From contig CANNHN010000004.1 in the NCBI GenBank assembly GCA_947504725.1, positions 21,090 to 85,089 on the forward strand: DNA of 64,000 bases, given 5' to 3'. The position numbers and the translations under genes are program-made. The DNA comes from Bacteroidota bacterium (GTDB lineage: Bacteria; Bacteroidota; Bacteroidia; 2-12-FULL-35-15). This document shows positions 8,065-24,366 of the stretch, piece after piece; the stretch's first letter is position 1, and each line of letters starts with the position of its first letter. The notes beneath the pieces are model-generated. The model was not told where the DNA came from. It was given only the letters and a program-made list of their open reading frames with translations, and did no database searches.

Positions 8065-9462
8065 CTACTTCATTGATCCACACATATCTTCCGGTTTCAC
8101 CCATTCATCAAACTGTTCGTTGGTTACATAACCCAATTCAATAGCTGCTTCACGCAACGTTTTATTTGCTTTATGTGCTGTCTTTGCAATTTTCGCTGCT
8201 TTCTCGTAACCAATATGCGTGTTCAACGCTGTTACCAACATCAACGAATTTTCTAAATGTTGTTTTAACATTGGTAAGTTTGGTTCAATTCCTACCGCAC
8301 AATTATCGTTGAAAGAAACACAAGCATCACCAATCAAACGTGCCGACTGCAATACGTTTGCAGCAATCACTGGTTTAAAAACGTTCAATTCAAAATGTCC
8401 GTTCATTCCACCAATAGAAACAGCAACATCATTTCCCATTACCTGAGCACAAACCATTGTCAATGCTTCTGGTTGTGTAGGATTTACTTTTCCAGGCATA
8501 ATTGAAGAACCCGGTTCGTTATCTGGAATAATTAATTCTCCAATTCCTGAGCGCGGACCAGAAGACAACATTCTAATATCGTTTGCAATTTTCATTAATG
8601 AAACAGCTGTACGTTTTAATGCTCCTGATAATTCAACCATAGCATCATGTGCAGCAAGTGCTTCAAATTTATTTGGTGCAGTAACAAACGGTAAGCCTGT
8701 TAATTCTGCAATTTTTTTCGCAACTAAAACATCGTATCCTTTTGGTGTGTTCAATCCTGTTCCTACAGCTGTTCCGCCCAATGCTAATTCACGAACCATT
8801 TCCAAAGCATTTTTAATTGCACGGATGCCATTCGTTAATTGCTGTGCATATCCTCCAAACTCTTGTCCAAGTGTTAAAGGTGTTGCATCCATAAAGTGAG
8901 TACGACCCGTTTTTACAATATTTTTAAAGTCGTTTGATTTTTTTACTAATGTATCTCTTAGTTTTTCAACTCCAGGAAGTGTAATATCCACAACTTGTTT
9001 GTAAGATGCAATGTGCATTGCAGTTGGATAGGTATCGTTTGACGATTGTGATTTATTTACATCATCATTTGGATGCAATACTTTTTTCTCGTCTGCTAGT
9101 TTCCCACCACTCATTACATGTGCACGGTAGGCGATTACCTCATTCGCATTCATGTTGGATTGAGTTCCTGAACCCGTTTGCCAAATTACCAATGGAAACT
9201 GATCATCTAATTTCCCTGCAATAATTTCATCACAAGCTTTTGCAATAAGGTCTTTTTTATCAGCCGATAAAACACCCAATTCACAATTAGCCATTGCAGC
9301 CGCTTTTTTCAGATAACCGAATGCATATATAATTTCCTTCGGCATACTTGCTTCAGGTCCTATTTTAAAATTGTTGCGGGAACGTTCTGTTTGTGCTCCC
9401 CAATATTTGTCGGCAGGTACTTTTACCTCGCCCATTGTGTCTGTTTCGATTCTGTATTCCAT
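8065..9462 (-). CDS. fumC: Class II fumarate hydratase
   Basis: [34 protein letters not shown] signature. Confidence 0.98.
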
Positions 9463-9548
9463 AATAGTGATAGAGTGATAAGGTTATAATGTAATAGTGT
9501 TGATTAATTTAGATTCAAATTTAAGGTTTTTTTGATGAGGATTAGTAT

Positions 9549-9778
9549 GGGAACGCAGATTTCTTATGATGGTTATGATAAGGTATGATTTTAAGGGGTT
9601 TCTTGTAATCATAAGATACTCCATTCCCCTCTTGAGAGGAGCTAGGCCTGCCTGCCGGACAGGCAGGGGTGTGTATTGGTTAATTATAATTAAGATAAAA
9701 TATGTTTATATAAATCATAATTTATTTCACTATTGTTTTATCCTTTTAATCATAAAAATCATAAGAAATCTGCGTTCC
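9549..9778. repeat. Nested palindromic repeat element
   Basis: Outer inverted repeat GGAACGCAGATTTCTTATGAT (9550-) / ATCATAAGAAATCTGCGTTCC (-9778) encloses ATTCCCCTCTTGAGAGGAGCTAGG...GGGGTGTGT, which itself contains CCTGCCTGCCGGACAGGCAGG. Confidence 0.75.
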
Positions 9779-9823
9779 TATTCTCGCTTTCTGCGTATCA
9801 CTCTCAAACCAAAACCAAATTTC

Positions 9824-11125
9824 ATGAGACAAAAATATGATAGTTCTGTAGTATTTCTTTATGCTACTGGCAACGAAGCTTTACTTCCAAAAGAATTCAG
9901 GCAACAAATACCTTACACTACTATTTCTTCCTGGCGAAAGGCGGATTATAGTTCTTACATTGGAAATGAATTTCGGTATTTTTTTGATGAGGCTTTTGAA
10001 GGCGCTGAATTGAAATTTAATTACAGAAAACAAAAACGCGCTTTGATTGCTTTTGCCAGATCTTGGCTTACGCTTTCTGTTTTTCTTAAACCGGTATTGA
10101 AAAAGGCTGGAAAGGATAAAACACTTCGAAAAAAACTTCTTCATGCAATTGAATGCATGAAGGAACATTTAGGAACGGAGAAGACTATTAAATTATTAGG
10201 AATCACAAAATCCCAATATCGTCAGTGGATTTTGGAAGAACAGTTTTCATGTTTTGATTCTTCAACTGCACTTTGTGTGAAACGTTATCCGCACCAATTG
10301 GCAAATAAAGAAATTCAAAAAATAAAAAAAATGCTTCTTGATCCAGAGTTGGCTCATTGGCCTATTCTGTCCATCGCTGCGTTTGGCTTGCGCGAAGGAA
10401 AAATCATTGCGAGTTTGTACAGTTGGTATAAGTATGCTAAACTTTATGGTGTTACCCGACCGTTTTCCAGAAAGGATCAAAAGAAAATTGGTTTGATTGC
10501 AACTTATCCGAACGAATATTTACATGCAGACCTCACTGAATTAATTGTTGGTGGAAAGAAAGCTTATATGTCGGTGGTGATGGACAACTATTCGAAAATG
10601 ATTCTTGGATTTCATATCGGAAGAAGAAAAACTGCGCATCTCTCATTAGTAGCTTTACGTAAAGCGATTGAAGTGATACTTAAGCATCCAAATCACTCTC
10701 ATATTTTCTTAGTAACTGATGGCGGAAAAGAAAACCATAATAAGCTGATGGAAGAATTTATTAGGAAATCCAAGACACATAAACTCACTAAGATAAGAGC
10801 GCTGAAGGAAATTCAATTTTCGAATTCACCAGTTGAAGCAGTTCATAAGATTATGAAAGGGCGTTATCTCCCAAAACAGATATTCGCTACTATGAAAAGT
10901 TTAAAAGAATACCTCGATTGGGCCGTGCACGATTATAATGAGCTTCGACCTCACTATCGGCATAGTCCGAGAACTCCTTATGAAGCCTATTTCAATATTC
11001 CTTTAAAATTTGATCTTAAGAAGAGGAGAAGGAATGCGGTGGTAAAAAGAGTTAAAAAAAATTCCTGTTCGAAATGCATTCAGTGTAAATTGGGACCGAG
11101 ATTAAAAGACTGTTGTTCAGCATAA
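9824..11125 (+). mobile_element. DDE-type (rve/IS3-like core) integrase-transposase, 433 aa
   Basis: PNEYLHADLT (D1), VMDNYSKMILG, VTDGGKEN (D2), NSPVEAVHK (E), YNELRPH..RTPYE; C-terminal Cys cluster; ATG at 9824 preferred over 9566. Confidence 0.85.
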
Positions 11126-11143
11126 TAGTTTTTTTGACTATCT

Positions 11144-11187
11144 TAGACCTACGAATGAACGTAGTTTTACTTTCAGAAAAACCCGAA
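11144..11187. repeat. Left copy of 44-bp inverted repeat (partner at 22678-22721)
   Basis: Core AACGTAGTTTTACTTTCAGAAAAACC (11158-11183) is the exact reverse complement of 22682-22707; 39/44 matches overall. Confidence 0.9.
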
Positions 11188-11213
11188 ATGCAGTGGGAAA
11201 GGGTGAAAATTCA

Positions 11214-11237
11214 GGTTCGATCCCCCTACGGGCTACA
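11214..11237 (+). other. tRNA 3'-end remnant (T-loop plus acceptor strand, tRNA-Glu-like); att-like site
   Basis: GGTTCGATCCCCCTACGGGCTACA; no 5' half, D-arm or anticodon arm upstream; Glu identity is from recollection of Bacteroidota tRNA-Glu 3' ends. Confidence 0.7.
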
Positions 11238-11885
11238 GTGCTGATTATAATAAGTGGGGCTTTGCCATACAGCCCATTGTCTATCAATATTTGTATGATG
11301 AGCCCAAAATATCGGATCAAATGCCGCACGCGGCACAGAAGACATTTCACCACGATTTGCACCGCCTGCACCAACCCAAACATGAATGCTTCCGTGAGGT
11401 CCTTCTATTGCACTATTAAATGATTCATAAGTATTGTTCTTGTATGCCAGTTTAGCAGAATCACTTATACTTTTTAATTGTTCAACTCTCCCAGGAAATC
11501 TTTTTGTTTTTCTGCTTCGATCTTCAATCGGTCCATTATACAAGGAATTTTCCTCAGTTACTCCTGATTGTAAATTGTAAAACTGATCGTTATATCCATC
11601 TGGTATACCAGTCTGCAGGCTTTCCATTGAAGTCCAATCCCAATACGGTAAATTTACAGAGCTGTCAATTTTTTTTAGTTCTGATTCGAATTTGAAAATA
11701 TAGTATCTGTGCCATGGTAAAAATAAGAAACTTCCATGTGGACAAAGAGCTTTAGGGATCCCATGGTATCCGGCCATATCAATATAACTGAACTCTCCAA
11801 TTTTTTCCTGGAAAGTCTTCATTGCTATTCTCAATTTATTGAGTTCGTCTGAAGTGTAGTTTCTGATATCTTTTCTTATGTTCAT
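11226..11885 (-). CDS. Tyrosinase (type-3 dicopper) family protein, probably C-terminally truncated
   Basis: N-terminal IRKDIR; CuA GYHG/CPHG/FLPWHR; LPYWDW; CuB PHGSIHVWVG and DPIFWAHHTNIDRQWAVWQ; stop codon lies inside the tRNA remnant. Confidence 0.88.
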   Translation of the reverse strand: MNIRKDIRNYTSDELNKLRIAMKTFQEKIGEFSYIDMAGYHGIPKALCPHGSFLFLPWHRYYIFKFESELKKIDSSVNLPYWDWTSMESLQTGIPDGYNDQFYNLQSGVTEENSLYNGPIEDRSRKTKRFPGRVEQLKSISDSAKLAYKNNTYESFNSAIEGPHGSIHVWVGAGGANRGEMSSVPRAAFDPIFWAHHTNIDRQWAVWQSPTYYNQHCSP

Positions 11886-12004
11886 ATATCTAATTTTGAA
11901 ATTTCACATTTTATTTCTTCATTTCTGGTCCAACCAATTCTTAAACAATCAGAATCGATTGGTCCAGAGCAGAATTGCTGAACAGATCAACAGGCCCGTG
12001 AAGT

Positions 12005-12724
12005 TTATTTATGTTTATCTTTTGAGAAAGAAAAGTCGGGAGATGCCCAATTTAGATCTACATTTCCTGCGATGCCATTAACTGAACCTTTTTCTGACCA
12101 TTGCCACATAAGCCATTCAGTCCATCCTACTGGCAATGTTGGTTTTTGAGTTTGATAATGAGCCAACCACAATGGGTAATTCCCAAGCGTGTGGGTTGAA
12201 GGTAGATTGTCATTTAAAAAAGACGGACCTCCATAAATAATTAGAGGCTCAGTACTATATGTTTCAAACTCTGCTATAAAAGCAAGGATCCATTGTAAAT
12301 AGTCAGCTTTTTTTAATGCATCCTTATTTTTTTCCAAATCTAAAACATAAGCTTTTGCCAATGTTGGCTTTGGTAGTTTTCTAAGAGCCGCAATAAAATA
12401 TTTAGCTTCAGTAACTGCATCTCCTTCTTTGTTTTCCGGAAATGCAAAGTGATAATAACCAAAAGGTAAGCCGACTCTTTTAGCCTCTTTTGCATTCGTT
12501 TCTGCTTTGAGATCTGATATTGTCGCACCTTCTGTGGTTTTTATGTAAACAAAACGTATTGGTTCATTCGGAATAACAACTTTACTCACTTTGTCCCAAT
12601 CTATTGCCCCTTGATGATGGGAAACATCAATTCCTTTCTTAAAATTGTTTAAATCTATAAATTCAAGCTCTGTTTTAAGTAGTTTGTTTTTTGGTGCTTT
12701 GTTTTTTACTGCTGTTTTTTTCAT
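12005..12724 (-). CDS. Glycoside hydrolase family 25 muramidase (lysozyme)
   Basis: GIDVSHHQG, FVYIKTTEG, GYYHFA, VLDLE (DxE), LWLAHY, WQWSEKG..GIAGNVDLN; no signal peptide. Confidence 0.93.
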   Translation of the reverse strand: MKKTAVKNKAPKNKLLKTELEFIDLNNFKKGIDVSHHQGAIDWDKVSKVVIPNEPIRFVYIKTTEGATISDLKAETNAKEAKRVGLPFGYYHFAFPENKEGDAVTEAKYFIAALRKLPKPTLAKAYVLDLEKNKDALKKADYLQWILAFIAEFETYSTEPLIIYGGPSFLNDNLPSTHTLGNYPLWLAHYQTQKPTLPVGWTEWLMWQWSEKGSVNGIAGNVDLNWASPDFSFSKDKHK

Positions 12725-12736
12725 ATTATTTAGTTT

Positions 12737-15700
12737 TTAAATTGTGAAAACATTTGAAAGAACAATTCGACTGTTTTTGTTTTCGATTATATTATCATAA
12801 TTGGTATCATTATCATTACCCCAATCCTCTGTTTCAATAATTACAACCTGGTATTCAGTATTTGAATAGTTGATATAGTGTAGTTTTTCATTTTCTGCTC
12901 CGGGAAGATTCGATAGTTTTAAAAAGGCCGACCTATCATTCTCTTTTTCTTTATCTGCAACATCCCATTTTATTGTACCTGATTTTCTATGACGGACAAC
13001 TGCATAAAATTTTGAGAGATTTTCTGAAGGATCACCTTTCAAAGTTGTAATGTCGAATTGAAGCTTGGGCTGGATAAACCATTTCCCATAATCTATTGTT
13101 ATGGTTCTGCTACCCATGATATAAGCATACCGTGATTTAAATGTCTCGGAAATTCTGCAATCTTTGGAAATATCGTATTCTCCTTCAATATTATAATTAG
13201 ATGAGTTCTCCTGATAATGTACAAGGAAAAATTTCAGGAACGGACTATGCAATTCTTTTCCTGATGCATCATTAATGTCGAGTTGAGCATCCACATACCA
13301 AAGGTTAAGTGATTTATCAAACTTAGGAAGGTAGGTCATTATACCAAGTTCTTTAACATATTTTGGACTAAAATCTTCAAGATCCCCCAATTTATTACCT
13401 GCCATATCTGTTAAGTCAAACGGATCATTAATGTCGAAGTTAGATCTTGCCAATAATACTCCTTCATTTCTATTCAAGCCGTCATAAGGTTTTACCGTAT
13501 CTGACAAAACATCTCTTCCAACCATTGATACTAGGCCATTCCCAACAAAATAATCATTGTACTTGCTTTCTACTTCATTAACTACAAATCCAATTCTTTC
13601 TCCTTGTCCGGAAGTTAGTCTTCCTCGTTCAAAGAAAAATCTCAACCTGTTCATTGTGATTTTCCGTACATCTGAATTACCTTCTTTCCAATCTTCAATT
13701 ACAGAAACAAGTGTAATATTTTTATCTGCAATTATTGGAAGACCAGGTTTTTTGCTGTTTAATATTTTAACATGGAATGGTTCATATGACAACCTGTTAA
13801 AGGTTTCTGCTGATGATTCATAAGACGTTTGGAGTTTTATTTTGTTTTCCTTATTGTCTTCAATTACACCCCATGTTTTAGGATAATAAGCAGTAAACTT
13901 TGATTTATTTTTTATCCAGAATATTTTTTCAACAAATTTTGTTTCTTTGATATCATAATTCAGATTCACGGTTACGGAATAATTTTTTGAATCATTATTA
14001 TCATCTGCAATTTTATGAATGCTGCTTTCCCAAGTGCCGAGTTGCTTTTGAACATCAACGCTAGTTTCAAATATTGCGGGCATTTCGGTATGATCATTCA
14101 GGTTTGATTCAAAATGATCGAGATTAACTTTATTCACAGGGTTGAGAGGTGTCCAGCTATCGTTGACGGTGGTGACATGTTTAGGGTCATCCTTGTACTC
14201 TTCCCACTTTGCATAGATCTCGACATTTCCTGTAGGCATTGTTTCATCAATGAAACGAACAATTCCTGCTTCGTCTTTGTAAATATTTATTTGTTCCAAA
14301 TGGACCGCGCCTTCATAAGAGACAATTGTCTTGTCTTTTTGCTTAATACATTTAAGTGTATTCATGAATTTAGGGCGAACCAACGGACGTTGAATGGCAT
14401 GGATCATACTGAATTCAAGAGGTGGTGTTAACAGATCATTATTACCATATCTGGTAAAATCATTGTAGTTGCCGTATGTTTCAAATTCAGCCTCGTATTT
14501 TTCGTTCAGGATCGTTCTTGCAGTAACAAAAATTTCCTGTCCTTTTTCCAGATGGATTACAATTTCCTCTCCGACAGTATTAAAAGTCAGTAATTCTCTG
14601 TTAGTATGATCATAATCCTTCAAAATAATTTTCCAGGCATTTATGTTAGGATATTTCCCAGTGAAATAAAATTCAAGCTGCTCATACTTTTCATAGTTTT
14701 CAGCTTTGATAGTGCGTTCCTTGTTTTTATAAAATTCAAATCTGAATCCTTTACTTAAAGGATCCGGTAAATAATTTATATTACAATTGCCGGAATAAGC
14801 ATCTCTCATCCTTGTAGAACCCTTAATGGATTCTTCCAGATCATACTTCCAATATGTTGGTTCTTCACCAATTTTTTTAGGCTTTTCTTTTGGAACCCAG
14901 TTTCCGTTCATATCCGTGAACATAACGACTTCATCTTCGATTGCAGGGAAGTGATATTTCATGTACCAATTATATGATTCAATAAGATCCATCCCTGTTT
15001 TTCCGTCTTTCTTAAAAAGTTTATTATGCCAGAAAGCTTGCTGAAAAGAAATTGCAGGTGGCAAAATGTGTCTTACAGAAGTTTGAGTGGTTTTATATAT
15101 TTTGTCATTGTCAGCTCTACTGCAATTGCGAATAACAAGATGAGTCAAGGATTCACCTTCTCTTAAGCATTCAGGCTCTCCTTTTTCATTCACTAGTTTT
15201 TCCTGAAGATAAAGCTCAATGGGTTTAACCGGTTCATTTCTTTTAAAGGTGAAATCATCAACAACAATAAAATTTGATTGTATTTTCGTTAAAAACTTCG
15301 GGTCAATAGCAAAACCATTTTTGTATTCAGGAACAGCCAATATTTGAATGTTTTTTCCAAACAACAATTTTTTATTTTTAATATCAGAAGAAGAATATTC
15401 GAATAAAAGTGGAACAATTTTTTTGTTTGTGTTCAACTTAACAATTGCTTTTTTCTTTTCCGTTTCAGTTAGTGTATTTGTATATTCTACGCCTAACGTT
15501 TCATAATCCTCCATAAAAAATTTGCTCATTGATTCAAGAACAAGTTTAGTCGATGGAGTGGTAGAACCTTCATCAACTATAGCCTCAAAATTTTCCTCTT
15601 TTTCCTGGTTTGAAAAGGCACTTGGCATTCCAATGTTTTCACCTGACCAGGTTAATAACGCCTGGTCTAGGATTACTTTTTTCTTGAGTACTTCTTCTTT

Positions 15701-17137
15701 GGCACCAGTAGGTTTTGTTATTTCCTCTTTTAATATTGCATGACTTCCTGCATCGGTATTGATAGCAAATTCTTGTTTTGTAAATTCCTTTGGCAGCAAC
15801 GCATTTAATTCTGCACCTAGGCTGCCTTTTAAAGTAACAGCTCTGGTTCCAAGGGGCAGAAACTGACTTTTTTCGCTTTTTGCAAAAAACCGGTATCCTC
15901 TGGTAATTCTGTAGAGATAGTTGCTTTTCAAATTTCCTGCTTCAACTTGCTCTTCAGCTTTCAGTACTTCCGACAGATTACTATTGTACATGCTCATTCC
16001 CGTGGTTAAAGCGGCTGTATCAACAGATAGTAATTGTTTTATAATGGCATTTCGTTCAGATTCTTTTTTTGAAGGATCTTTTAGTTGTTCAATATAATTT
16101 TTGTATTTTTCTTCAACTGTTTTTAATCCCACCAACTTGCCGCCAATATCATGATTCTTCGCCTGGTATTGTTTTACCACATTTTGGATTGGGGCTGCTT
16201 CCTCTACGACCAAAACATTAAGTTCGCGATAAATTTTCATTGGAGTCTCAAGGTGTTCCCAATTTAAATTTGCTATTTCAGGAATAGATTCAGGAAAATC
16301 AAAAACGATTCCAAACGCATCAATTCCCTCAGGTAAAGAATCCTCTAAAACTTTCTTTGGTATTTCAAAATCAATCGTTTTCCCAGATAATCTTTGCAAT
16401 AATATATTTGAATCCAATACAGACCAGAAGTCCAAAATAGTATCGATGGTATCCAAAATATCCTTTAGTTGCAATTCGTCAGCAAGATGCAATGCTTTAT
16501 ATTCTTGCGTATTTGTTTCATCCGAAAAAAGTGTAATTCCATTCAATTTGTCGTTAAACGCATGGATGTCGGTTTTTAAGTCAGCACTGAAAACATTATC
16601 TATTTTTGCTGCACCAACAATTTTTAACTGTTTACTCTTGATTGTGGCGAATGCTTCAATCGCTTTTTTTCGTGGCTGATCAGTATCAGGTAAGCTGTTT
16701 TTACCAAACAAAGATGTTGTTGAATTTGCACTAAGGTCAAAACTTGGGGCAAAATTTTTAATTTTATCGCTGCGTTTATCGGTTCTTTTAGGGAGACTTT
16801 TATTTAACTCATTCCATACAGTAGGGACTTTATCTGATAAGCTCTGAAAACACAATTGTGAAACACTTATTGCCTTTTGCCCTTGCACTATTTTAACCTT
16901 TAAATTTTTTATGAGTTTTTCATGAACAGATTTGTTTTCTATTCCGAAAGTCTTAATAAATTCCTGAAGCGCCACTAAGGAAGGAACTAGCAATTTATCG
17001 TCTCCTTCTGAAGGGAAATTAGGGTTAATATCTATGCATAAAGAAAATCTATACCATAAATTGGTTGATTCATCAGTTCTAGTTCCGAAAGGCAAAATGC
17101 TTGTGCGGATGTGTTTAAAATCTTCCATATTAATCAA
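12737..17137 (-). CDS. Large hypothetical protein (1466 aa), beta-rich, no signal peptide
   Basis: Long uninterrupted ORF overlapping the upstream gene stop (alternative ATG at 17128); no recognisable catalytic motif. Confidence 0.85.
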   Translation of the reverse strand: MINMEDFKHIRTSILPFGTRTDESTNLWYRFSLCIDINPNFPSEGDDKLLVPSLVALQEFIKTFGIENKSVHEKLIKNLKVKIVQGQKAISVSQLCFQSLSDKVPTVWNELNKSLPKRTDKRSDKIKNFAPSFDLSANSTTSLFGKNSLPDTDQPRKKAIEAFATIKSKQLKIVGAAKIDNVFSADLKTDIHAFNDKLNGITLFSDETNTQEYKALHLADELQLKDILDTIDTILDFWSVLDSNILLQRLSGKTIDFEIPKKVLEDSLPEGIDAFGIVFDFPESIPEIANLNWEHLETPMKIYRELNVLVVEEAAPIQNVVKQYQAKNHDIGGKLVGLKTVEEKYKNYIEQLKDPSKKESERNAIIKQLLSVDTAALTTGMSMYNSNLSEVLKAEEQVEAGNLKSNYLYRITRGYRFFAKSEKSQFLPLGTRAVTLKGSLGAELNALLPKEFTKQEFAINTDAGSHAILKEEITKPTGAKEEVLKKKVILDQALLTWSGENIGMPSAFSNQEKEENFEAIVDEGSTTPSTKLVLESMSKFFMEDYETLGVEYTNTLTETEKKKAIVKLNTNKKIVPLLFEYSSSDIKNKKLLFGKNIQILAVPEYKNGFAIDPKFLTKIQSNFIVVDDFTFKRNEPVKPIELYLQEKLVNEKGEPECLREGESLTHLVIRNCSRADNDKIYKTTQTSVRHILPPAISFQQAFWHNKLFKKDGKTGMDLIESYNWYMKYHFPAIEDEVVMFTDMNGNWVPKEKPKKIGEEPTYWKYDLEESIKGSTRMRDAYSGNCNINYLPDPLSKGFRFEFYKNKERTIKAENYEKYEQLEFYFTGKYPNINAWKIILKDYDHTNRELLTFNTVGEEIVIHLEKGQEIFVTARTILNEKYEAEFETYGNYNDFTRYGNNDLLTPPLEFSMIHAIQRPLVRPKFMNTLKCIKQKDKTIVSYEGAVHLEQINIYKDEAGIVRFIDETMPTGNVEIYAKWEEYKDDPKHVTTVNDSWTPLNPVNKVNLDHFESNLNDHTEMPAIFETSVDVQKQLGTWESSIHKIADDNNDSKNYSVTVNLNYDIKETKFVEKIFWIKNKSKFTAYYPKTWGVIEDNKENKIKLQTSYESSAETFNRLSYEPFHVKILNSKKPGLPIIADKNITLVSVIEDWKEGNSDVRKITMNRLRFFFERGRLTSGQGERIGFVVNEVESKYNDYFVGNGLVSMVGRDVLSDTVKPYDGLNRNEGVLLARSNFDINDPFDLTDMAGNKLGDLEDFSPKYVKELGIMTYLPKFDKSLNLWYVDAQLDINDASGKELHSPFLKFFLVHYQENSSNYNIEGEYDISKDCRISETFKSRYAYIMGSRTITIDYGKWFIQPKLQFDITTLKGDPSENLSKFYAVVRHRKSGTIKWDVADKEKENDRSAFLKLSNLPGAENEKLHYINYSNTEYQVVIIETEDWGNDNDTNYDNIIENKNSRIVLSNVFTI

Positions 17138-20100
17138 TATAAGAGTTAATAAAAATTTCCCATTGTAATCGTGTCAGTGGTTTAACTTTTCGTTCAACGG
17201 GATTTGTTATTGTTTTCAAAACAGCACTATATTTTGTTTTGTCATGAACATCCTCGGCCGATAACAGCTTGAGTGTGTTGTATTTTTGAACTGCAAGCAA
17301 CATACTTCCCGACTGGCTATTTCCAGGAGTTGCGCCTGCAAGTTTTTTATAATATGTTGCCGAAAAAGATCTCTTAAAGAATCTGCCCAAGCGTATCTCA
17401 TAAGAAACGGTACATCTGCCTTCCACATATGCGCCCTGACTTCTTACTCCCATATAGAACCTTGCAGTAATCATAATAAACCAGAGCTTCACTCTTCCTT
17501 CGCAAAGGAAATAGCCTTCTATAACAACTCCCGTTCTATCCTTTTTATAGTACAGTCCTACAACAAGTTTTACTTCGCCTCTTAGTGGGCCTAGATTCAA
17601 CCCGAAATACCCTCCGAATTCAATACTTACCTCTATTGTTGTGATTCCCTCTTTTGGATTACCAATAACAATAAAATAAAATAAACCGGTGTAGATACCA
17701 ACAGATAATTTCGTTCTGTTTTCAGGTGTGCCAATTCCGACACCTAACTCCATTGGTTTTTTATCGAAATATAAGGTATATACTATTTTAAACAGTATAT
17801 CTTTAAAACCGAAGGAAGGTGCCCCTGCATAAGCTATTGGAAGCAAATATTGGATTTCAACATTTTGAGGAGAAATTCTTACAGAGAAATTATCACCGAG
17901 CAGTTTTTTAAATAATGCTTCAAGTGCCTGCACAAAAGAAAATGCACCAGCAAACTGGACATCCCTGATCTTAACTTCAAATTTTGATTTTTGATTGGTG
18001 CCTGCAACAAAACTTACCTCATTGAAATTAATTATGATTGCTTTCAAAAGGCTGATTCCGAAATTATTAAGTCTGTTTTCTGCGCTAGACTCAACCTTGC
18101 TTATGACGGCAGGAAATTTATTTGGTTGAAAGAAAATGGTGTTCTTTACTTTAACAGAAAGTGAGGTCTTTGGATTTTCAGATGCTAAAAAACTAACAAT
18201 ACCAAAATCTGCATTTTTAAAGGAAGAGGTTTGCCAGTTATAATTTATTTCTTTTTTGGATAAAGAGGAAAGAATATTATACAACTCTTTTCCTTTTATT
18301 ACTGCATCTATAAGCGCTTTATTATCAGGGTCATTTAATAATTCATTTTCTTTATCTTTAACTTTCTGAATTACCAATTCTACAATGTTTTTGCCTGCAG
18401 CAATCTGATTTTTTGTGAACTCTTCAAAAATCTTTAATGCCTTGATTTGTTTTTGTATCTCAGCCTTTAGTTCATCCTCCTTTATTCTTATCTGTTCTTT
18501 AAAATCTTTAAACCCATTTTGTGGGATTTTCATGATTTCTTCAATTCTATCGACACCTATGCTTTTGGTATAGGCGGCAATAGAAGTTTTACTTTCTAAA
18601 ACAAGAGTGTCAAAATTGTCTTTTAAAATATCATATTTAAGTTTTTTTAAAGTAGGAGTGATTTGTATCTCTTCTAAATAAAATGCTTCAAGCTTTTTTC
18701 TTTCGTTCTGAACTGATGCTATAAAGTCTTTATGTTCTACACGATTAATAATAGAATCAATAGCATTGCCTAAAAGAAATTCATTCGGTTTTAATTTAGA
18801 CTTGAACGTATTAATGTCTTTCATAGCCTTATCATACATGTTTATATAATAAGGCAGGTTAATCGTTTCAAGGATTTCAGTTAGTTTAAAAACAGATTTT
18901 TGTACGGATACAATAGCAGGTTCATATTCTTTTATCAATGCAAAATCTGTCGGGTATTTTTTTAATTCAGTTAATAACTTAAATACGTCTGATTTGGCGG
19001 ATTGAATTTTTTCTATCTCCTGGTCATATTTTTCCTTAGAATCAAGTGCAGTTTTTTTAATAGCAAGATATTTATTGTAATTAACTGAGGTTTGTTGCTG
19101 AATGTACAAATTGTATGCTGTTACCTCCTTACCTATATCCTCCGAATACTTTTTATATAGCGTGTAGAAGCTCGTAACTTTATTGCTTATTGATAAATGA
19201 ATCTGAGAATATTCTCTGATGATCTTATCTTTTGAAGGTGCTGCAAGGTTGATGAGAATCTGATCATCGTTCAAAAAATTCTTTACAAAATTATTGATAA
19301 GGGTCTTTGTTTCAGGACCAAGATTGGGTGTTTTTGCTAGTGTATCGAATGAGTCTTTGGCATCCTTTAAAGCTTGATAATAAGGATAAATAGCTTCTGT
19401 ACGGCTGATTAATTCTGCAGCGAAGTAATTAACAATCTCATTCATCTGCGTGGTGCCAAATGTTACAATCTCATTTTGGACTTGGAGGAATCTTATTTTA
19501 TGTTTAGAAACAGCACTTTCCACCAGTTTCTCAATTTCAGAAGCAAGGTAGCCTATGTTAAATTTGTCTTTATATTCTTTAAGAGTATTTTGATAAGTAG
19601 CTATTGTATTACTTATAGCTTCAATATCATCCAGATAATTTTTTATAGTATCATTAATAGTACGCAGATCTCCTTCTATTTCAAGGTAGATGGAATTATT
19701 AAGAAACTCGTCTCTGATAGCTTCTATTTTTGAACTGATATTCTTTATCTCATTCAAAGGTGCTTCATAATCAGGGAAAACTTCCTGCAGAATATCTAAT
19801 AAGCTTATTCCGTTAAAGATCTCAGGCGCTTGTCTTAAAAGATCTGAAGGATTGAATTCTTTAATTTCGTCAACAATATTTACAGCATTCTCATATTTTT
19901 TATTAATATCTTTTCCAACAGCAATACTTTGTTTGACTAGCCCAATTGATTGAATATCAAAATCAGGGTTAACCATTCCTCCAATTGTTTCTCCTGCACC
20001 TCCGAATGCTTCTTTGATTTTCTTATAACCACTATCTGCTTTTTCCTGCCATTTGCCATTTATATTCTCCAGTACAGTTTCTCCTTTCTTAATAAAACTG

Positions 20101-22454
20101 TCTGTATGATTAAAAATAAGTCTTGCTTTATTATATATGTTTTCTACTGGCTGTCCTTTTTCATTGATCCGGATAAGTGTTTTTCCGCTTTTGTCTCTTA
20201 CTTTACCTGCGTAGCCGTAATTAATAAAATCATCATTATATTCAACAATCGAGGCGATAGGTTCCGGAGTATAACTTTGAATATTTTCTACATACAGTTG
20301 AGCTTTTTTCGCTTGAGGATAAAGCGGAAATGCTCTTTCATTAAAAATGGAACTTTGGCCAACAGCAATCTCAGCGTCAGTAGGAATCAGCACCGTTCCA
20401 GTTTCGGTCTTTACAGAACGTGTAGGTTCCAAACAAATACTGAAATAGTATTCCAGGAAATCGGTTTTGGCTATGTTGGTTTTATTTGGTACAGAACCTT
20501 TTATTTCAGGGTCGGTTGGAATAAAGTCAGGAGTAAAGGCTATGCTCTGATCAATGAATCTGATAGCTCTTCTATCGAATTTCTGGTTTATAAAACCAAG
20601 TTTACTGTCGCTGTATAGATTCTCATAGATTTTTTGTTCCCCGGTTTGACATTCAATGATTTTTTTTCTGATAAAAAGAAAAGTGCTTGAAAATTTGATC
20701 TCCTTATCATTCCAATCAAAACCAATAAAATCTAGATAACAGTCATTGTCTGCATCCTTTATCTGATTTTCTTTTACCGGCCAAAAAAAAGTTGCACAAT
20801 CGCAACCTGGTGCTGCATAGCTACGGGCCTCCGGATCTGTCGAGTTTATGCGGGGAGTTATAAAAGTTACCGATTTGACTTTTTTAAACGGCCATCGTTT
20901 ATAATTTGTGTGCCAGTTTTTTTTCTGATCGGTATAAGGGTGCTCTGGAAGATAATCCTTTATAGCCCATATAACCGAATCTCTGTAAGTATTGTCCGTT
21001 TCTTTATCAAGAAGATCAATGCTATGAATAATTGCATCCGGCTTTGGAGGTTTTCTGTTATCATTATAAGTATAATAAACCGGAGGGTATTTTCTCGCGT
21101 GAATATAATTTTGAGGCTCTTTAGGATTGAGGTCTCCGGGTATAAATAAGTTATTGTCGAAATACGTGAGTTCTTTCTGTATGATCTCAATGTATTCATA
21201 GAATTCCATATAACTGATCCCGTTCCTGATTTTCCTTTCTCCAATATAAACGTGTAAAGCTTTTTGACCTGTTACGGAAATAACACCGATCCTTGCTACT
21301 TTTATATATTCATCACGGCCCATTGTTATGTGATGTTCATATTCTGCAAGATCTGTCCCGTCAGGAGGACTGAAATTTTTATAATGAAGTTTTGTTATGG
21401 CTCCAAGTCCTGTAAATGTTAATCCTTTTGTTTCTATGTTCCATTCATTATCTGAATTAAGGTTTCTACCCAGGCTGGTTAAAAAAACAAGTTCGTTCTT
21501 ATCAAGTAGAGTAGGAAGATATGTTATCTCTTCAACAGGACATTCGCCATCATCTCTCAGACCCTCCTTGACGCCCCGAGGGAGAAAACCGACAGCCCTC
21601 AAAGAAGGACTTTTGATGCCATCCGCGGTTTCGAAAAACATTTGTGCCGACCAGATTTCTTCAACTGTTCGCGTCACTTTTCTATTTGCATTATTATATA
21701 AAAACCTTTTTTTGGGAATCCTATACGTTTCCATATAGGTTCTTGTGCCTTCTTTGTTATAAGGGGATAATAATAATCCTTCAGGTATTTCAAGAAGGGT
21801 CATCGGATAATTACCGCCCTTAAATAATTTTTCGCAGATCGATTGGTAGAGCTTAATGATATAGCCTTTGGTTGGTTTTTTGTCGACATCCACAATCCTT
21901 GCCTCATCTCCTTTTTCAAAGTCAGACCACTTCTGTTTTTTAAATTTTATATAATCTGCTTCATTTGGAATTATAAGCTTATAGTATAATGGATTATTCC
22001 AGGCTAATAAATTTTCTATTTTGCTTAGATCAATGTATGTGATCTTTTTACCTTTAGGGGTGGGTTTAACAGCGGGAGGGAAAAGTTCGAAAGCTAAAAA
22101 GGAAAAGCCTGAGATTTCGGATGTTGTTCTTTTATTTGTATTTAAATATTCAGACTCAAACTTTGCATTTCTCAATAGCAATTCCGAAATATGCTGTTGT
22201 GGAAGCTTAACTATCATATAGCTTTTTGAATTGATATCAGACTTTACGATACAGTCAACTTTAATTTCCGCATTAATAAAATAGAAATGTAAATTGGTCA
22301 GATTGTTATCAAAATAATGAAAATCAGTTGAGATCATTGCTTCGTCAAGAGCATCCGGCAGAATATTCAAAAGCTTTGATAATGCATCAATAGTTGGAAG
22401 GGATGCAAAAGCAGTAAAAAGCATTTTTTGAGCAAATGAACGTCTTGATTCCAT
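17130..22454 (-). CDS. Giant hypothetical protein (1774 aa): Tat-like N-terminus, central helical/coiled-coil region, amphipathic beta-strand C-terminus
   Basis: Starts MESRRSFAQK; K/E/I/L-rich helical stretch at about aa 900-1400; Gly/aromatic alternating strands in the last ~300 aa. Confidence 0.85.
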   Translation of the reverse strand: MESRRSFAQKMLFTAFASLPTIDALSKLLNILPDALDEAMISTDFHYFDNNLTNLHFYFINAEIKVDCIVKSDINSKSYMIVKLPQQHISELLLRNAKFESEYLNTNKRTTSEISGFSFLAFELFPPAVKPTPKGKKITYIDLSKIENLLAWNNPLYYKLIIPNEADYIKFKKQKWSDFEKGDEARIVDVDKKPTKGYIIKLYQSICEKLFKGGNYPMTLLEIPEGLLLSPYNKEGTRTYMETYRIPKKRFLYNNANRKVTRTVEEIWSAQMFFETADGIKSPSLRAVGFLPRGVKEGLRDDGECPVEEITYLPTLLDKNELVFLTSLGRNLNSDNEWNIETKGLTFTGLGAITKLHYKNFSPPDGTDLAEYEHHITMGRDEYIKVARIGVISVTGQKALHVYIGERKIRNGISYMEFYEYIEIIQKELTYFDNNLFIPGDLNPKEPQNYIHARKYPPVYYTYNDNRKPPKPDAIIHSIDLLDKETDNTYRDSVIWAIKDYLPEHPYTDQKKNWHTNYKRWPFKKVKSVTFITPRINSTDPEARSYAAPGCDCATFFWPVKENQIKDADNDCYLDFIGFDWNDKEIKFSSTFLFIRKKIIECQTGEQKIYENLYSDSKLGFINQKFDRRAIRFIDQSIAFTPDFIPTDPEIKGSVPNKTNIAKTDFLEYYFSICLEPTRSVKTETGTVLIPTDAEIAVGQSSIFNERAFPLYPQAKKAQLYVENIQSYTPEPIASIVEYNDDFINYGYAGKVRDKSGKTLIRINEKGQPVENIYNKARLIFNHTDSFIKKGETVLENINGKWQEKADSGYKKIKEAFGGAGETIGGMVNPDFDIQSIGLVKQSIAVGKDINKKYENAVNIVDEIKEFNPSDLLRQAPEIFNGISLLDILQEVFPDYEAPLNEIKNISSKIEAIRDEFLNNSIYLEIEGDLRTINDTIKNYLDDIEAISNTIATYQNTLKEYKDKFNIGYLASEIEKLVESAVSKHKIRFLQVQNEIVTFGTTQMNEIVNYFAAELISRTEAIYPYYQALKDAKDSFDTLAKTPNLGPETKTLINNFVKNFLNDDQILINLAAPSKDKIIREYSQIHLSISNKVTSFYTLYKKYSEDIGKEVTAYNLYIQQQTSVNYNKYLAIKKTALDSKEKYDQEIEKIQSAKSDVFKLLTELKKYPTDFALIKEYEPAIVSVQKSVFKLTEILETINLPYYINMYDKAMKDINTFKSKLKPNEFLLGNAIDSIINRVEHKDFIASVQNERKKLEAFYLEEIQITPTLKKLKYDILKDNFDTLVLESKTSIAAYTKSIGVDRIEEIMKIPQNGFKDFKEQIRIKEDELKAEIQKQIKALKIFEEFTKNQIAAGKNIVELVIQKVKDKENELLNDPDNKALIDAVIKGKELYNILSSLSKKEINYNWQTSSFKNADFGIVSFLASENPKTSLSVKVKNTIFFQPNKFPAVISKVESSAENRLNNFGISLLKAIIINFNEVSFVAGTNQKSKFEVKIRDVQFAGAFSFVQALEALFKKLLGDNFSVRISPQNVEIQYLLPIAYAGAPSFGFKDILFKIVYTLYFDKKPMELGVGIGTPENRTKLSVGIYTGLFYFIVIGNPKEGITTIEVSIEFGGYFGLNLGPLRGEVKLVVGLYYKKDRTGVVIEGYFLCEGRVKLWFIMITARFYMGVRSQGAYVEGRCTVSYEIRLGRFFKRSFSATYYKKLAGATPGNSQSGSMLLAVQKYNTLKLLSAEDVHDKTKYSAVLKTITNPVERKVKPLTRLQWEIFINSYID

Positions 22455-22677
22455 AAATTATTCTCTAAAATTGTTTGTATAAAAATTGTTTTGCTTCTTC
22501 AAATAGGGAATCATTCAAACTACCCCAATGAAAATACTGATGTTTTCATGCGATTAAAATAATATTTGAGGGAGTAGCTCGGAGCGAAAATATATATTGT
22601 TTCAAGAAAAGCAAAGGCTGGTTACTTCCCGATACAAAATCTACAAAATATCCTATACAATAAGTCATCATTCAATA

Positions 22678-22721
22678 TTCCGGTTTTTCTGAAAGTAAAA
22701 CTACGTTGTATCGTAGGTGTA
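22678..22721. repeat. Right copy of 44-bp inverted repeat (partner at 11144-11187)
   Basis: TTCCGGTTTTTCTGAAAGTAAAACTACGTTGTATCGTAGGTGTA. Confidence 0.9.
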
Positions 22722-22754
22722 CCAAATGTAGTGAAATTTAACAGGGGAGGAAAG

Positions 22755-23162
22755 TTATTTCAAAAACTCCAGCACTTTTTCCGGTGGCCTGCCTATAATG
22801 GCTTTCTTCCCTTTAACAACAATAGGGCGCTCAATAAGAATAGGGTTTTGAGCCATAGCTTTTATCCATTGCGCTTCAGTTAAATTCTTTCCTTCATACT
22901 TTTCCAAAAATATTGGCTCTTTCTTTCGCACTAAATCTACAGCTTTCAATCCAAGCATTTTTAAAAGCTCTTTTATTTCAGCTTGAGTAAGTGGTGTTTT
23001 TAAATATTCAACAATCTCGGTTTTAACTTTCTTTTTTTCTAAGATAGTACAAACGTCTCTGCTTTTGGAGCAACGGGTGTTGTGGTATAACCTCACCCCG
23101 GCCCTCTCCAAAGGAGAGAGAGTTGTCTCCGTTTTTGTTTTAGTAGTTTTTGTCTTTATCAT
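22755..23162 (-). CDS. arsC: ArsC/Spx-family (glutaredoxin-type arsenate reductase) protein
   Basis: YHNTRCSKSR, EYLKTP, NPILIERPIV, IGRPPE; N-terminal extension partly encoded by a palindromic repeat. Confidence 0.9.
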   Translation of the reverse strand: MIKTKTTKTKTETTLSPLERAGVRLYHNTRCSKSRDVCTILEKKKVKTEIVEYLKTPLTQAEIKELLKMLGLKAVDLVRKKEPIFLEKYEGKNLTEAQWIKAMAQNPILIERPIVVKGKKAIIGRPPEKVLEFLK

Positions 23163-23221
23163 GTTTTCAATTTTTTGTTTCGGAGTAATCCCCTTTCCTT
23201 TGGAGAGGTTTAGGGGCGAGG
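23091..23221. repeat. REPIN-like inverted pair straddling the arsC start
   Basis: CCTCACCCCGGCCCTCTCCAAAGGAGAGAG (23091-23120) and CCCCTTTCCTTTGGAGAGGTTTAGGGGCGAGG (23190-23221). Confidence 0.8.
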
Positions 23222-23222
23222 T

Positions 23223-24312
23223 CTACGAATTACCATACTCCATCAAATAAGCTTTTATAAAGTCTTTTAAATCGCCATCCATTACGGCTTGAATGTTTGA
23301 TGTTTCGTGTCCAGTTCTTACATCTTTAATTAACTTATACGGATGAAAAACATAGTTTCGAATTTGTGAACCCCATTCAATTTTCTTTTTATTTCCTTCA
23401 ATTACATTTATTGCTTCACGTTGTTTTCTTAATTCAATTTCAAACAATTGTGATTTTAATAATTTGATTGCATTTTCTTTATTCTGCAATTGTGAACGTG
23501 ATTCTTGATTTTTAATGATGATTCCAGAAGGCTTGTGATACAAGCGCACTGCTGTTTCTACCTTGTTTACATTTTGTCCGCCTGCACCGCCAGCTCTAAA
23601 TGTTTCAAATTCTAAATCACCAGGATTCACATCAATTTCAATTGTATCATCAATTAATGGATATGCATAAACAGAAGCAAAAGAAGTATGACGTTTAGCA
23701 TTTGAATCGAAAGGAGAAATACGCACCAAACGATGAACTCCGTTTTCACCTTTTAAATATCCGAAAGCATAATCGCCTTCAAATTCTAAAGTAACAGATT
23801 TTATTCCTGCTGCATCACCATCTGTTCTATCTGTTTCTTTTACTTTATAGCCATTTTTACTCCCCCACATCATGTACATACGCATGAGCATTTCTGCCCA
23901 ATCACAACTTTCAGTTCCACCAGCTCCGGCATTTATTTGTACAACACAACTTAAAATATCCTCTTTTCCGCTGAGCATATTTTTGAATTCAATTTCTTCC
24001 AACAATTGAATGGTTGTTTGATATTGTTGTTCAACATCTTGCTCAGTTGCTTCACCTTGCTTAAAATAATCATACAGCAAAGCAAGGTCATCCACATTGC
24101 TTTGTGCTTTAGCAAATGACAGGGTCCAATTCTTTTTTAATTTGGTTTGTTTTAGCAGTTCTTCTGCTTTTTTTGGGTCGTCCCAGAAATTCGGTGCGAG
24201 TGCTTTCTCTTCTTCTTCAGCTATTTCGCGAAGCTTACGATCGATGTCAAAGATGCCCCCTTAACGCACTGGTGCGCTCCCGAAGGTCTTTTAGTTGGTC
24301 TGTAGTAATCAT
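23223..24312 (-). CDS. prfB: Peptide chain release factor 2, with programmed +1 frameshift
   Basis: ATG 24312 [21 protein letters not shown], then CTT TGA C (24252-24246) preceded by AGGGGG; the +1 frame continues [13 protein letters not shown] into the ORF carrying SPF and GGQ motifs. Confidence 0.97.
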
Positions 24313-24366
24313 AGTGCGAAGTTAATAAATATTGGGAATTTGAGAGAGAAATAAGAGTATTTTTGT

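Follow-up and report, generated by a model that had tools for sequence, protein, structure and literature searches.

The 64,000-nucleotide stretch of Bacteroidota DNA analysed here (contig CANNHN010000004.1 of assembly GCA_947504725.1, positions 21,090 to 85,089; hereafter the window) carries two adjacent genes for giant proteins, A and B, which form the conserved unit of a large and mobile system, as yet unnamed, in which an envelope-cutting partner is optional. In the window this partner is a muramidase of glycoside hydrolase family 25 (GH25), an accessory to the pair, and the tyrosinase gene that follows it lies outside the unit. The best reading of the module, which we hold tentatively, is that A and B would form an envelope complex exported by way of twin-arginine translocation (Tat) and served by an accessory wall-opening enzyme. 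The initial annotation, made from the sequence alone, had placed all four genes in one candidate system; the observation itself (four genes, the pair and its signal) is confirmed, and the interpretation is partly supported. The four genes are as follows.

17130..22454, minus strand: gene A, 1774 aa from an ATG start, 203.5 kDa; candidate Tat signal, globular N-terminal part, helical spacer and C-terminal beta-hairpin domain.
12737..17137, minus strand: gene B, 1466 aa from a TTG start or 1463 aa from the ATG at 17128, 168.4 kDa; array of beta-sandwiches of immunoglobulin (Ig)-, fibronectin type III (FN3)- or macroglobulin (MG)-like type.
12005..12724, minus strand: GH25 muramidase gene, 239 aa, without a signal peptide; Pfam PF01183 at 1.1e-43; 12 nt after B.
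11226..11885, minus strand: tyrosinase-type copper oxidase gene, 219 aa; Pfam PF00264 at 1.5e-40; probably 3'-truncated.

The listing of open reading frames (ORFs) places all four genes co-oriented on the minus strand, and the coordinates first given for the block, 11226-22454, were reproduced. The overlap reported for A and B at 17130-17137 (8 nt) holds for the longest B ORF, with the TTG start. It is more likely that B starts at the ATG at 17128, one base past the A stop codon (17130-17132); the ESM Atlas record of B begins at residue 4, read as M, which is this ATG. Since both starts adjoin or overlap the A stop, A and B are tightly coupled in either case. Spacings of 12 bp between the B stop and the GH25 start and of about 120 bp between GH25 and the tyrosinase had also been claimed, and 12 and 119 nt were measured. 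A scan for promoters and terminators gave counts not distinct from those of shuffled sequences (52 vs. 46.9; 11 vs. 8.1).

Neither giant was found to map end to end to a characterised family: Pfam, NCBIfam, PADLOC, PHROGs and PDB sequences returned nothing credible for A or B, and the two are unrelated to each other when their profiles are compared (hhalign). The families have thousands of members, yet no relative in Pfam, NCBIfam or PDB. Among 1.84 billion sequences, a profile of the C-terminal 390 residues of A matched 3,894 representatives (50% identity) at E<=1e-3, of which 2,425 reach E<=1e-30, and a set of 5.8 billion proteins yielded 31 homologues of A and 33 of B. The named ones are called "hypothetical" or "uncharacterized protein" and once "coiled-coil domain-containing protein," none of them a functional name, and the ESM Atlas gave only unnamed clusters for both. 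No description of the pair was found in full-text literature, a search that left subscription-journal papers mostly outside, and an earlier published description cannot be excluded.

A was found in the company of B wherever there is sequence downstream of it. The first set of relatives came from a scan of one genome per species and comprises 25 loci, or 26 places with the window; a co-oriented B lies directly after A in 22 of the 26 by blastp clustering. Among the others, B matches by tblastn in L006, where the contig ends inside B, and in L020; L011 has a B-sized ORF at the position after A, and L019 is a 4.7-kb contig that ends before any downstream sequence. In L020 (9050-18509), which belongs to a Bacteroidetes metagenome-assembled genome (MAG), A and B are each split into several ORFs, either through decay of the copy or through sequencing errors. 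A second sample, independent of the first, consisted of 400 other genomes drawn evenly from the phylum. The C-terminal domain of A occurs in 13 of them (14/401 with the window genome; 10/179 genera), and in 13/13 of these loci A is followed by an ORF of 1363-1540 aa that matches the B profile at E<=1e-125 (hmmsearch).

The pair extends well past the phylum and onto plasmids. A tblastn search of plasmids returned 19 records, from the Bacillus cereus group (7), Rhizobium (4), Cupriavidus (2), Streptomyces (2) and, with one each, Ruegeria, Agrobacterium, Sinorhizobium and Diaphorobacter; a match to the B profile follows the A-like gene in 7/7 inspected plasmid loci of the 19, B being read as two ORFs on the Agrobacterium plasmid. 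One protein, P0045 (3362 aa), is a single A-B fusion. Members of the two families come from isolates in the Bacteroidota, Pseudomonadota, Bacillota and Actinomycetota and from MAGs that carry the labels Acidobacteriota, Nitrospina and Cyanobium. The paired giants of other phyla to which the initial annotation had likened parts of A and B are thus borne out as a co-oriented adjacent pair across phyla, and the three segments it quoted fall within conserved blocks of the A and B alignments. Homologues carry neighbouring locus tags in Pedobacter frigiditerrae (EZ428_10715/10710) and Dyadobacter sp. CY327 (LZG74_11250/11245); these two and Cupriavidus metallidurans CH34 are cultivable relatives with the pair. 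No match was obtained by tblastn of the C-termini of A and B against 50,697 phage records.

A opens with a candidate export signal.

22350..22454, minus strand: twin-arginine signal region of A, residues 1-35 (MESRRSFAQK and hydrophobic h-region), a conserved motif.

This N-terminus, MESRRSFAQKMLFTAFASLPT, combines an S/T-R-R-x-F-L-K motif with a moderately hydrophobic h-region, as Tat substrates do, and its hydropathy in a 19-residue window peaks at 1.28 at residue 11. Signals were judged throughout by eye and with Kyte-Doolittle windows. Residues R4, R5 and F7 are at least 90% conserved among homologues. The pattern (S/T)RRxF(L/I)K with a hydrophobic stretch behind it stands at the start of 19 of the 22 full-length A ORFs of the first set, the exceptions being L011 (Marinifilum) and two actinobacterial loci, L023 and L025; in the independent phylum sample it is seen on 10 of 12 A N-termini. 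It recurs on the fusion protein P0045 (TRRSFIK) and on a 3311-aa A-like protein of Ruegeria (SRRTFLG). No such motif was seen at the start of the Cupriavidus A ORF as read, and neither A nor B bears a signal in the monoderm relatives (Bacillus, Streptomyces, Kitasatospora). In L001, L003 and L007 the h-region is followed by a lipobox-like Leu-x-Gly-Cys motif. The window's own genome encodes TatC (PF00902, 223 bits). That only the first protein of the cluster has an export signal, as had been claimed, was upheld, B, GH25 and the tyrosinase having no hydrophobic N-terminus. Judged on its conservation, the twin-arginine signal of A is a real feature and a candidate for Tat export.

Behind the signal, A divides into three regions.

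19815..22349, minus strand: N-terminal conserved region of A, residues 36-880, from conserved blocks in alignments.
18303..19814, minus strand: helical or coiled-coil region of A, about residues 880-1385, of variable length, from profile matches.
17133..18302, minus strand: C-terminal domain of A, residues 1385-1774, from an AlphaFold2 (AF2) model; the most conserved part of A.

The N-terminal profile drew no match with E below 0.36 among PDB sequences. The A1 profile, over about residues 870-1360, matches solely coiled-coil and amphipathic-helix proteins of the PDB (ApoA-IV at 1.3e-05, spectrin, SMC), and this helical region is the least conserved of the protein, with low occupancy; in monoderms (Bacillus, Streptomyces), where A has about 1000 aa, lengths and domain positions suggest that there is little space for it. 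The C-terminal domain, which occurs in monoderms too, is modelled as beta-hairpins of 14-19 residues followed by three helices, with a predicted local distance difference test score (pLDDT) of 77.5 and a predicted template-modelling score (pTM) of 0.45; after the beta part, about 70 further, partly helical residues lead to the C-terminus. Its invariant residues are glycines and aromatics. A Foldseek search of the model against the PDB gave no match at E<=1e-3. The matches of highest probability are outer-membrane barrels (Vibrio cholerae OmpT at 0.99, Omp32, LptD, FhaC, PelB), and they are weak, with E>=1.8e-3 and template-modelling scores (TM) of 0.2-0.3. A catalytic motif considered in the "EYEHH" block of A was dropped; wider alignment keeps only R380 and D381 of the block. 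Some alphaproteobacterial A-like proteins exceed 3000 aa, about twice the window A (Ruegeria L044, 79-10014, 3311 aa; Agrobacterium L072, 973-10092, 3039 aa).

B has no signal and no transmembrane or hydrophobic segment at any locus examined. Residues 267-1466 are modelled by AF2 as a chain of beta-sandwiches (pLDDT 84.2, pTM 0.69). Its Foldseek matches, all at TM of about 0.1, include the Ig-like domains of PrgB (1.7e-07), complement C5 and C3 and the alpha-2-macroglobulin of Escherichia coli (4rtd), along with S-layer, phage FN3 and tail-fibre proteins; because TM is about 0.1, the likeness to these arrays is at the level of single domains. Pfam gave one stray match on 20 relatives of B, and neither A nor B yielded an NTPase or nuclease domain. 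The initial annotation had recognised no catalytic motif in either giant, which agrees with wide alignments that conserve mostly Gly, Pro and aromatics and show no catalytic signature. Because the predicted folds are beta-rich or helical and the alignments lack such a signature, A and B look structural or binding, rather than enzymatic. A predicted complex of the C-terminal domain of A with residues 1-600 of B scored 0.00, a result without weight either way.

Sequence after B is available in 22 places (the window, L001-L005, L007-L018, L021 and L023-L025), and in 12 of them the next gene, co-oriented, encodes a peptidoglycan hydrolase or binder. Eight of the 12 exceed the Pfam cut-off: GH25 in the window; Amidase_6 and an Rv2525c-like glycoside hydrolase (GH) with SLT in L001; a TseH-like protein in L003 (5.3e-27); M23 in L005, L010 and L012; DUF5675 and Amidase_3 in L021; and PG_binding_1 in L023. 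Those of L004, L007 and L008 are placed by blastp cluster only, and that of L024 is weak (M23 at 23.9 bits, below the cut-off). The window GH25 matches PHROG endolysin families down to 8.5e-49 and clusters by blastp with the GH+SLT genes after B in L001 and L008 (2e-37 for L008). To judge by family, these enzymes would attack a glycan, an amide bond or a peptide. The peptidoglycan-related genes lie at gaps of 2-83 nt in most cases and are spread over three subclades of A and at least six enzyme families. L015 and L018 have papain-like peptidases (C70/C39_2) at this position, and L025 has no co-oriented gene after B.

Many third-gene products have N-termini of Sec or lipoprotein type, read by eye; such N-termini are lacking in the window GH25, in the short M23 proteins and in the GH+SLT proteins. 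The signal-bearing enzymes are therefore expected in the producer's periplasm. The products of L013:18573-19376 and L015:19208-19852 have their first ~50 residues in common (BLASTP 9e-06) and differ in their C-terminal parts; the common stretch consists of a signal peptide and "V.F.K..Y," a weak hint at an N-terminal module on variable enzymes. Since peptidoglycan hydrolases, patatin, a lipase and a protease are found at or near the position, the slot tends to hold cutters of envelope polymers, and it is optional and clade-dependent. In the phylum sample, 7/13 loci have no co-oriented gene after B, and the next genes of the others encode a membrane protein with SRPBCC and GyrI-like parts (L050-L052), a Crp regulator, unknown proteins, an AAA ATPase and an asparagine synthase. 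The L050-L052 protein, from three genomes of one family, is a membrane-anchored SRPBCC (Polyketide_cyc2)+GyrI-like protein of 333-335 aa that may bind a lipid or small molecule. Linkage to cell-wall hydrolases, by which the initial annotation proposed to judge the co-location of the giants, is thus present in 12/22 nearer loci and absent from the phylum sample (0/13), and the muramidase, which it had made a part of the system, keeps its place as an accessory of the nearer clades and loses it as a constant component.

The proposed mechanism runs as follows. In diderm hosts, A would be made and folded in the cytoplasm. There B, itself without a signal, would probably bind it, and both proteins would pass through Tat to the periplasmic side on the twin-arginine signal of A. 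Binding and co-export are proposed because there is a single signal for the two, the genes are tightly coupled, a fused form exists and the fold of B is of an extracytoplasmic type. The exported complex would then act at the envelope. The helical region of A would be a spacer in it, the beta-hairpin domain of A, rich in Gly and aromatics, would form the end that faces a membrane or the wall, and the beta-sandwich array of B would serve as an arm for binding or scaffolding. The next gene would supply an enzyme that cuts an envelope polymer, here a signal-less GH25 of endolysin type, closely coupled to B. Folded particles above 200 kDa should not pass an intact sacculus, and the GH25 would most likely open the producer's own sacculus locally for the passage or assembly of a pre-folded complex of this size (>200 kDa). 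The producer's own wall is favoured as the target because the enzyme is dispensable, any wall bond seems to serve, targeting to the producer's own periplasm is common and no immunity gene is present.

A number of observations weigh against this reading. As regards export, A at 203.5 kDa and A+B at 372 kDa lie above the upper size of ~150 kDa quoted for Tat cargo in section 8 of one review (PMC6708511), and monoderm A and B are without a signal, so that an extracytoplasmic role may not hold family-wide. The proposed membrane- or wall-facing end rests on a model with pTM of only 0.45 and no significant fold match. As regards the enzyme, no wall hydrolase follows B in any of the 13 phylum-sample loci, so that it is not required for the core function; 7 of the 22 third genes are without a family (L002, L009, L011, L013, L014, L016, L017); and the window GH25 has no signal and its island no holin that would give it a route to the wall. 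A patatin-like phospholipase lies just downstream in Cupriavidus, which also has SLT there, and in Rhizobium; a GDSL lipase lies near two PG_binding_1 proteins in Streptomyces L023, and an M35 protease is found nearby in Ruegeria. Patatin, lipase and protease fit weapons better than they fit wall-openers.

Of the systems already described, the cluster would work most like type 10 secretion and like Tat hitch-hiking, and it is a member of neither, since it has no holin, no cofactor domain and no known cargo family. In type 10 secretion (Serratia ChiWXYZ, Salmonella TtsA with typhoid toxin, C. difficile TcdE), a signal-less wall hydrolase of endolysin type is encoded beside large proteins, and the wall is the barrier that the hydrolase removes (PMC13284979, PMC10109510, PMC9527704, PMC12150058). 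The window fits this pattern with a GH25 (1.1e-43; PHROG endolysin 8.5e-49) 12 nt after B, and the GH25 step would follow the same logic as type 10 secretion and as the lytic enzymes dedicated to other trans-envelope machines. However, neither holin nor spanin was found in the window island, the A-B cargo has a predicted Tat signal of its own, the hydrolase varies in family, often bears a signal and is dispensable, and A and B are unrelated to known cargo of type 10 secretion. In Tat hitch-hikers (HybO-HybC, DmsAB, PaoABC, MelC1-MelC2), as in the A-B pair, one partner has an SRRxFLK-type signal and the other is signal-less and translationally coupled, an arrangement for which PaoABC serves as an example (PMC4273604). 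A and B differ from these in that no cofactor-binding domain was found in them and in that both A and A+B exceed the ~150 kDa quoted above.

If A is truly exported by Tat, the size range of the pathway would extend well beyond the quoted value, and if the linked enzymes are helpers, they would provide a new case of a producer opening its own wall for a giant protein. A bolder version, to which we give rather low credence, makes A-B an unrecognised phylum-spanning envelope machine and the largest natural Tat cargo (~370 kDa), with a membrane-inserting hairpin domain, an Ig-like arm that holds the target and swappable enzymes that breach the envelope of another cell. Were this true, the machine would be a self-contained route for killing or secretion unrelated to types I-XI.

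The main rival takes the downstream enzymes as payload or co-effectors, with A-B as a delivery or potentiating device or a membrane-active toxin against other bacteria; it is doubtful. If the enzymes are payload, the module would be a new interbacterial weapon. The third-gene families mirror those of interbacterial effectors, the envelope effectors of type VI secretion systems (T6SS; Tae/Tge/TseH/Tle) among them: TseH-like proteins, M23, amidases, muramidase/SLT, papain-like C70/C39_2 and patatin all occur in or by the slot after B. The enzyme switches family between close relatives while A-B stays constant, and the common N-terminal ~50 residues of the L013 and L015 products, joined to differing C-terminal parts, would suit such switching, weakly; the stretch includes the signal peptide. 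Spread is mobile and patchy (an island here, plasmids elsewhere, 13/400 genomes in the phylum, 0/24 in the genus), and the Gly/aromatic-rich C-terminal domain of A has membrane beta-barrels as its fold matches of best probability. Against this, no further co-oriented gene that could confer immunity follows in at least nine three-gene loci (the window, where only a truncated tyrosinase remnant comes after GH25, and L004, L005, L007, L010, L013, L015, L017 and L018), although immunity would be superfluous for a diderm producer if the enzyme acts from outside. Many of the enzymes have Sec or lipoprotein signals of their own, and 13/13 phylum-sample loci lack the enzyme. Nor did Pfam find genes of a known secretion system flanking the window cluster, with no Hcp, VgrG, PAAR or other T6SS genes beside it. 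The initial annotation had listed Tc toxins among the comparisons to be made; no VRP1, TcdB or RHS domains were found in A, B or the 20 B relatives, and no Tc protein in PDB sequence and fold searches.

A structural role is unlikely. A-B would here be a tether or spacer of the SlpA/OmpM kind or a lipid-binding bridge, with the wall or lipid enzymes there for remodelling. A shares the domain order of SlpA and OmpM: first a globular N-terminal part, then a long helical region (a long coiled coil in those proteins) and, at the C-terminus, a beta-rich domain. In diderms this helical region is long, and the ~1000-aa monoderm A, by its lengths and domain positions, seems to have little space for one. 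Trimeric SlpA, LptD and low-probability lipid-transfer proteins are among the fold matches, and lipid-related neighbours occur (SRPBCC+GyrI-like in L050-L052, patatin, GDSL lipase). However, these fold matches are not significant (TM 0.19 for SlpA), no SLH, AsmA or TamB domain was found by Pfam, the signal is of Tat and not Sec type, and ~70 residues follow the beta-domain. The family also occurs in monoderms, there without a signal, and a pair that is accessory and mobile and present in 3% of phylum-sample genomes is unlike a core envelope part. A lipid conduit of the AsmA/TamB type, as suggested in the initial annotation, drew no backing from the C-terminal fold search of A, where lipid-transfer proteins reach probabilities of only 0.13-0.23. 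B in turn resembles the bacterial alpha-2-macroglobulins (ECAM/YfhM, with PBP1c) in its ~1500 aa, its MG/Ig-like beta-sandwiches and an adjacent gene for a peptidoglycan enzyme; it differs in having no lipoprotein signal, no sequence similarity and a TM of about 0.1, and identification as an alpha-2-macroglobulin or thioester protein was dropped, A and B having no CxEQ.

It is quite improbable that A and B are cytoplasmic giant toxins freed by a phage-derived muramidase, in the style of type 10 secretion or the large clostridial toxins, with a twin-arginine motif that does not work. The signal-less GH25 matches phage endolysins (8.5e-49), monoderm A and B are both signal-less, and published cases of type 10 secretion do pair virulence proteins with endolysin-like hydrolases (PMC13284979, PMC10109510, PMC12150058). 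However, the motif and its h-region are kept in 29/34 relatives, a degree of conservation that a dead signal would hardly show; nothing holin-like, in the sense of a small co-oriented ORF with hydrophobic segments, lies between or beside the four genes; many partner hydrolases have signals of their own; and A and B have no phage matches.

Equally slight is the probability that GH25 sits in the island by chance, as unrelated to the pair as the tyrosinase, and that A and B have no link to the cell wall. The tyrosinase clearly is a passenger and hydrolases are found in 0/13 phylum-sample loci, but a peptidoglycan-related gene occupies the same position and orientation in 12/22 nearer loci, mostly at gaps of 2-83 nt (12 nt in the window), and this linkage extends over three subclades of A and involves six or more enzyme families.

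Least probable of all is a role in anti-phage defence, in which the envelope-degrading enzyme would kill the infected cell: patatin belongs to the known effector types of defence systems, and the pair is accessory, mobile and patchy, with defence-type neighbours in Bacillus (HNH nucleases, a helicase, an HD protein) and Agrobacterium (dpdE). On the other side, a known system was rejected for want of a credible PADLOC match (a TIR model at E = 0.03 on B; none for A, GH25 or the tyrosinase), cytoplasmic sensing goes poorly with a periplasm-directed signal and an Ig-like array, A and B lack NTPase and nuclease domains, and the window neighbours are housekeeping genes.

The mobility of the module is visible in the window itself, where the four genes lie within an insertion.

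9463..22756, no strand assigned: insertion of 13.3 kb (transposase and four genes) between fumarase and an ArsC-family gene.
9566..11125, plus strand: rve-family transposase gene, inside the 13.3-kb insertion; Pfam rve at 2.7e-09, rve_3 at 1.1e-07.
11144..11187, plus strand: left arm of a 44-nt inverted repeat, 89% complementary; terminator-like hairpin and conserved tail.
22678..22721, minus strand: right arm of the 44-nt inverted repeat; with the left arm it brackets exactly the four genes.

The window has fumarase at 8065-9462 and the ArsC-family gene and prfB from 22757; in two genomes of the same genus (G005, G044) the ArsC-family gene and prfB come directly after fumarase, and 9463-22756 is therefore extra in the window. 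A was not found in 24 genomes of the same genus or in 16 of the same class. The insertion did not arise in assembly: run X1, possibly the source sample, has a 20,246-nt contig that spans 9418-24000 with no difference, and the right junction is crossed by an 898-nt contig from another study (X2). Other contigs diverge at 9463, as expected of strains without the insert. A search by eye for a target-site duplication could not fix the exact junctions.

The 44-nt element consists of a short GC hairpin and a TTTTACTTTCAGAAAAACC tail. Its 24-nt core occurs four times in the genome, the other copies being at G000:C4:400-423 and G000:C16:31081-31104, and one copy of the element (L026) has 97 nt in common with window 22622-22718. 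It could be a terminator module, a repeat like a miniature inverted-repeat transposable element or the ends of an 11.6-kb mobile unit. Separately, a 36-nt inverted repeat (89%) at 9544-9579 and 9749-9784 lies at the start of the transposase gene, and 9578-9744 is missing from contigs of three runs, a hint that the segment varies or forms a hairpin.

The tyrosinase, which the initial annotation had cast as cargo or a cross-linker, found no support in that role. It occurs in 0/25 related loci, and its alignments to solved tyrosinases stop at residue ~209-213, where those run on for about 50 residues (against 1wx2, query 49-209 aligns with 53-228 of 281). All six copper histidines are present by eye, the apparent cut falling after CuB. 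The ORF ends in a tRNA-like remnant.

11213..11237, plus strand: 25-mer resembling the 3' end of tRNA-Glu, 23/25 identical to the 3' end of the genome's tRNA-Glu(TTC).

The last codons of the tyrosinase lie in this remnant, which adjoins the left repeat arm; the likeness to tRNA-Glu(TTC) is weaker upstream (11180-11237), and the anticodon arm is missing. ARAGORN detected no whole tRNA at 11213..11237, and Rfam gave only a chance miRNA match around the tyrosinase. Such a remnant is the kind of scar that integrative elements leave. The tyrosinase is taken to be a passenger outside the module, probably 3'-truncated. Its resemblance to the MelC1/MelC2 pair, invoked for hitch-hiking through Tat, fails in the same respects, no caddie-like ORF being present with the truncated gene. 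Its best matches among PDB sequences are functional units of mollusc hemocyanin (e.g., 6r83, 8 stretches), including the N-terminal 40 residues, and bacterial tyrosinases rank below them.

Outside the insertion, cluster neighbours in the window are housekeeping genes. The prfB gene at 23223-24348 has an ORF of 290 aa from a GTG that lacks the first 64 PCRF positions, homology to relatives continuing upstream to 24348, the pattern that the programmed +1 frameshift of release factor 2 would give. At the far end, a very long ORF (at least 1526 aa) at 59422-63999 runs off the end of the window.

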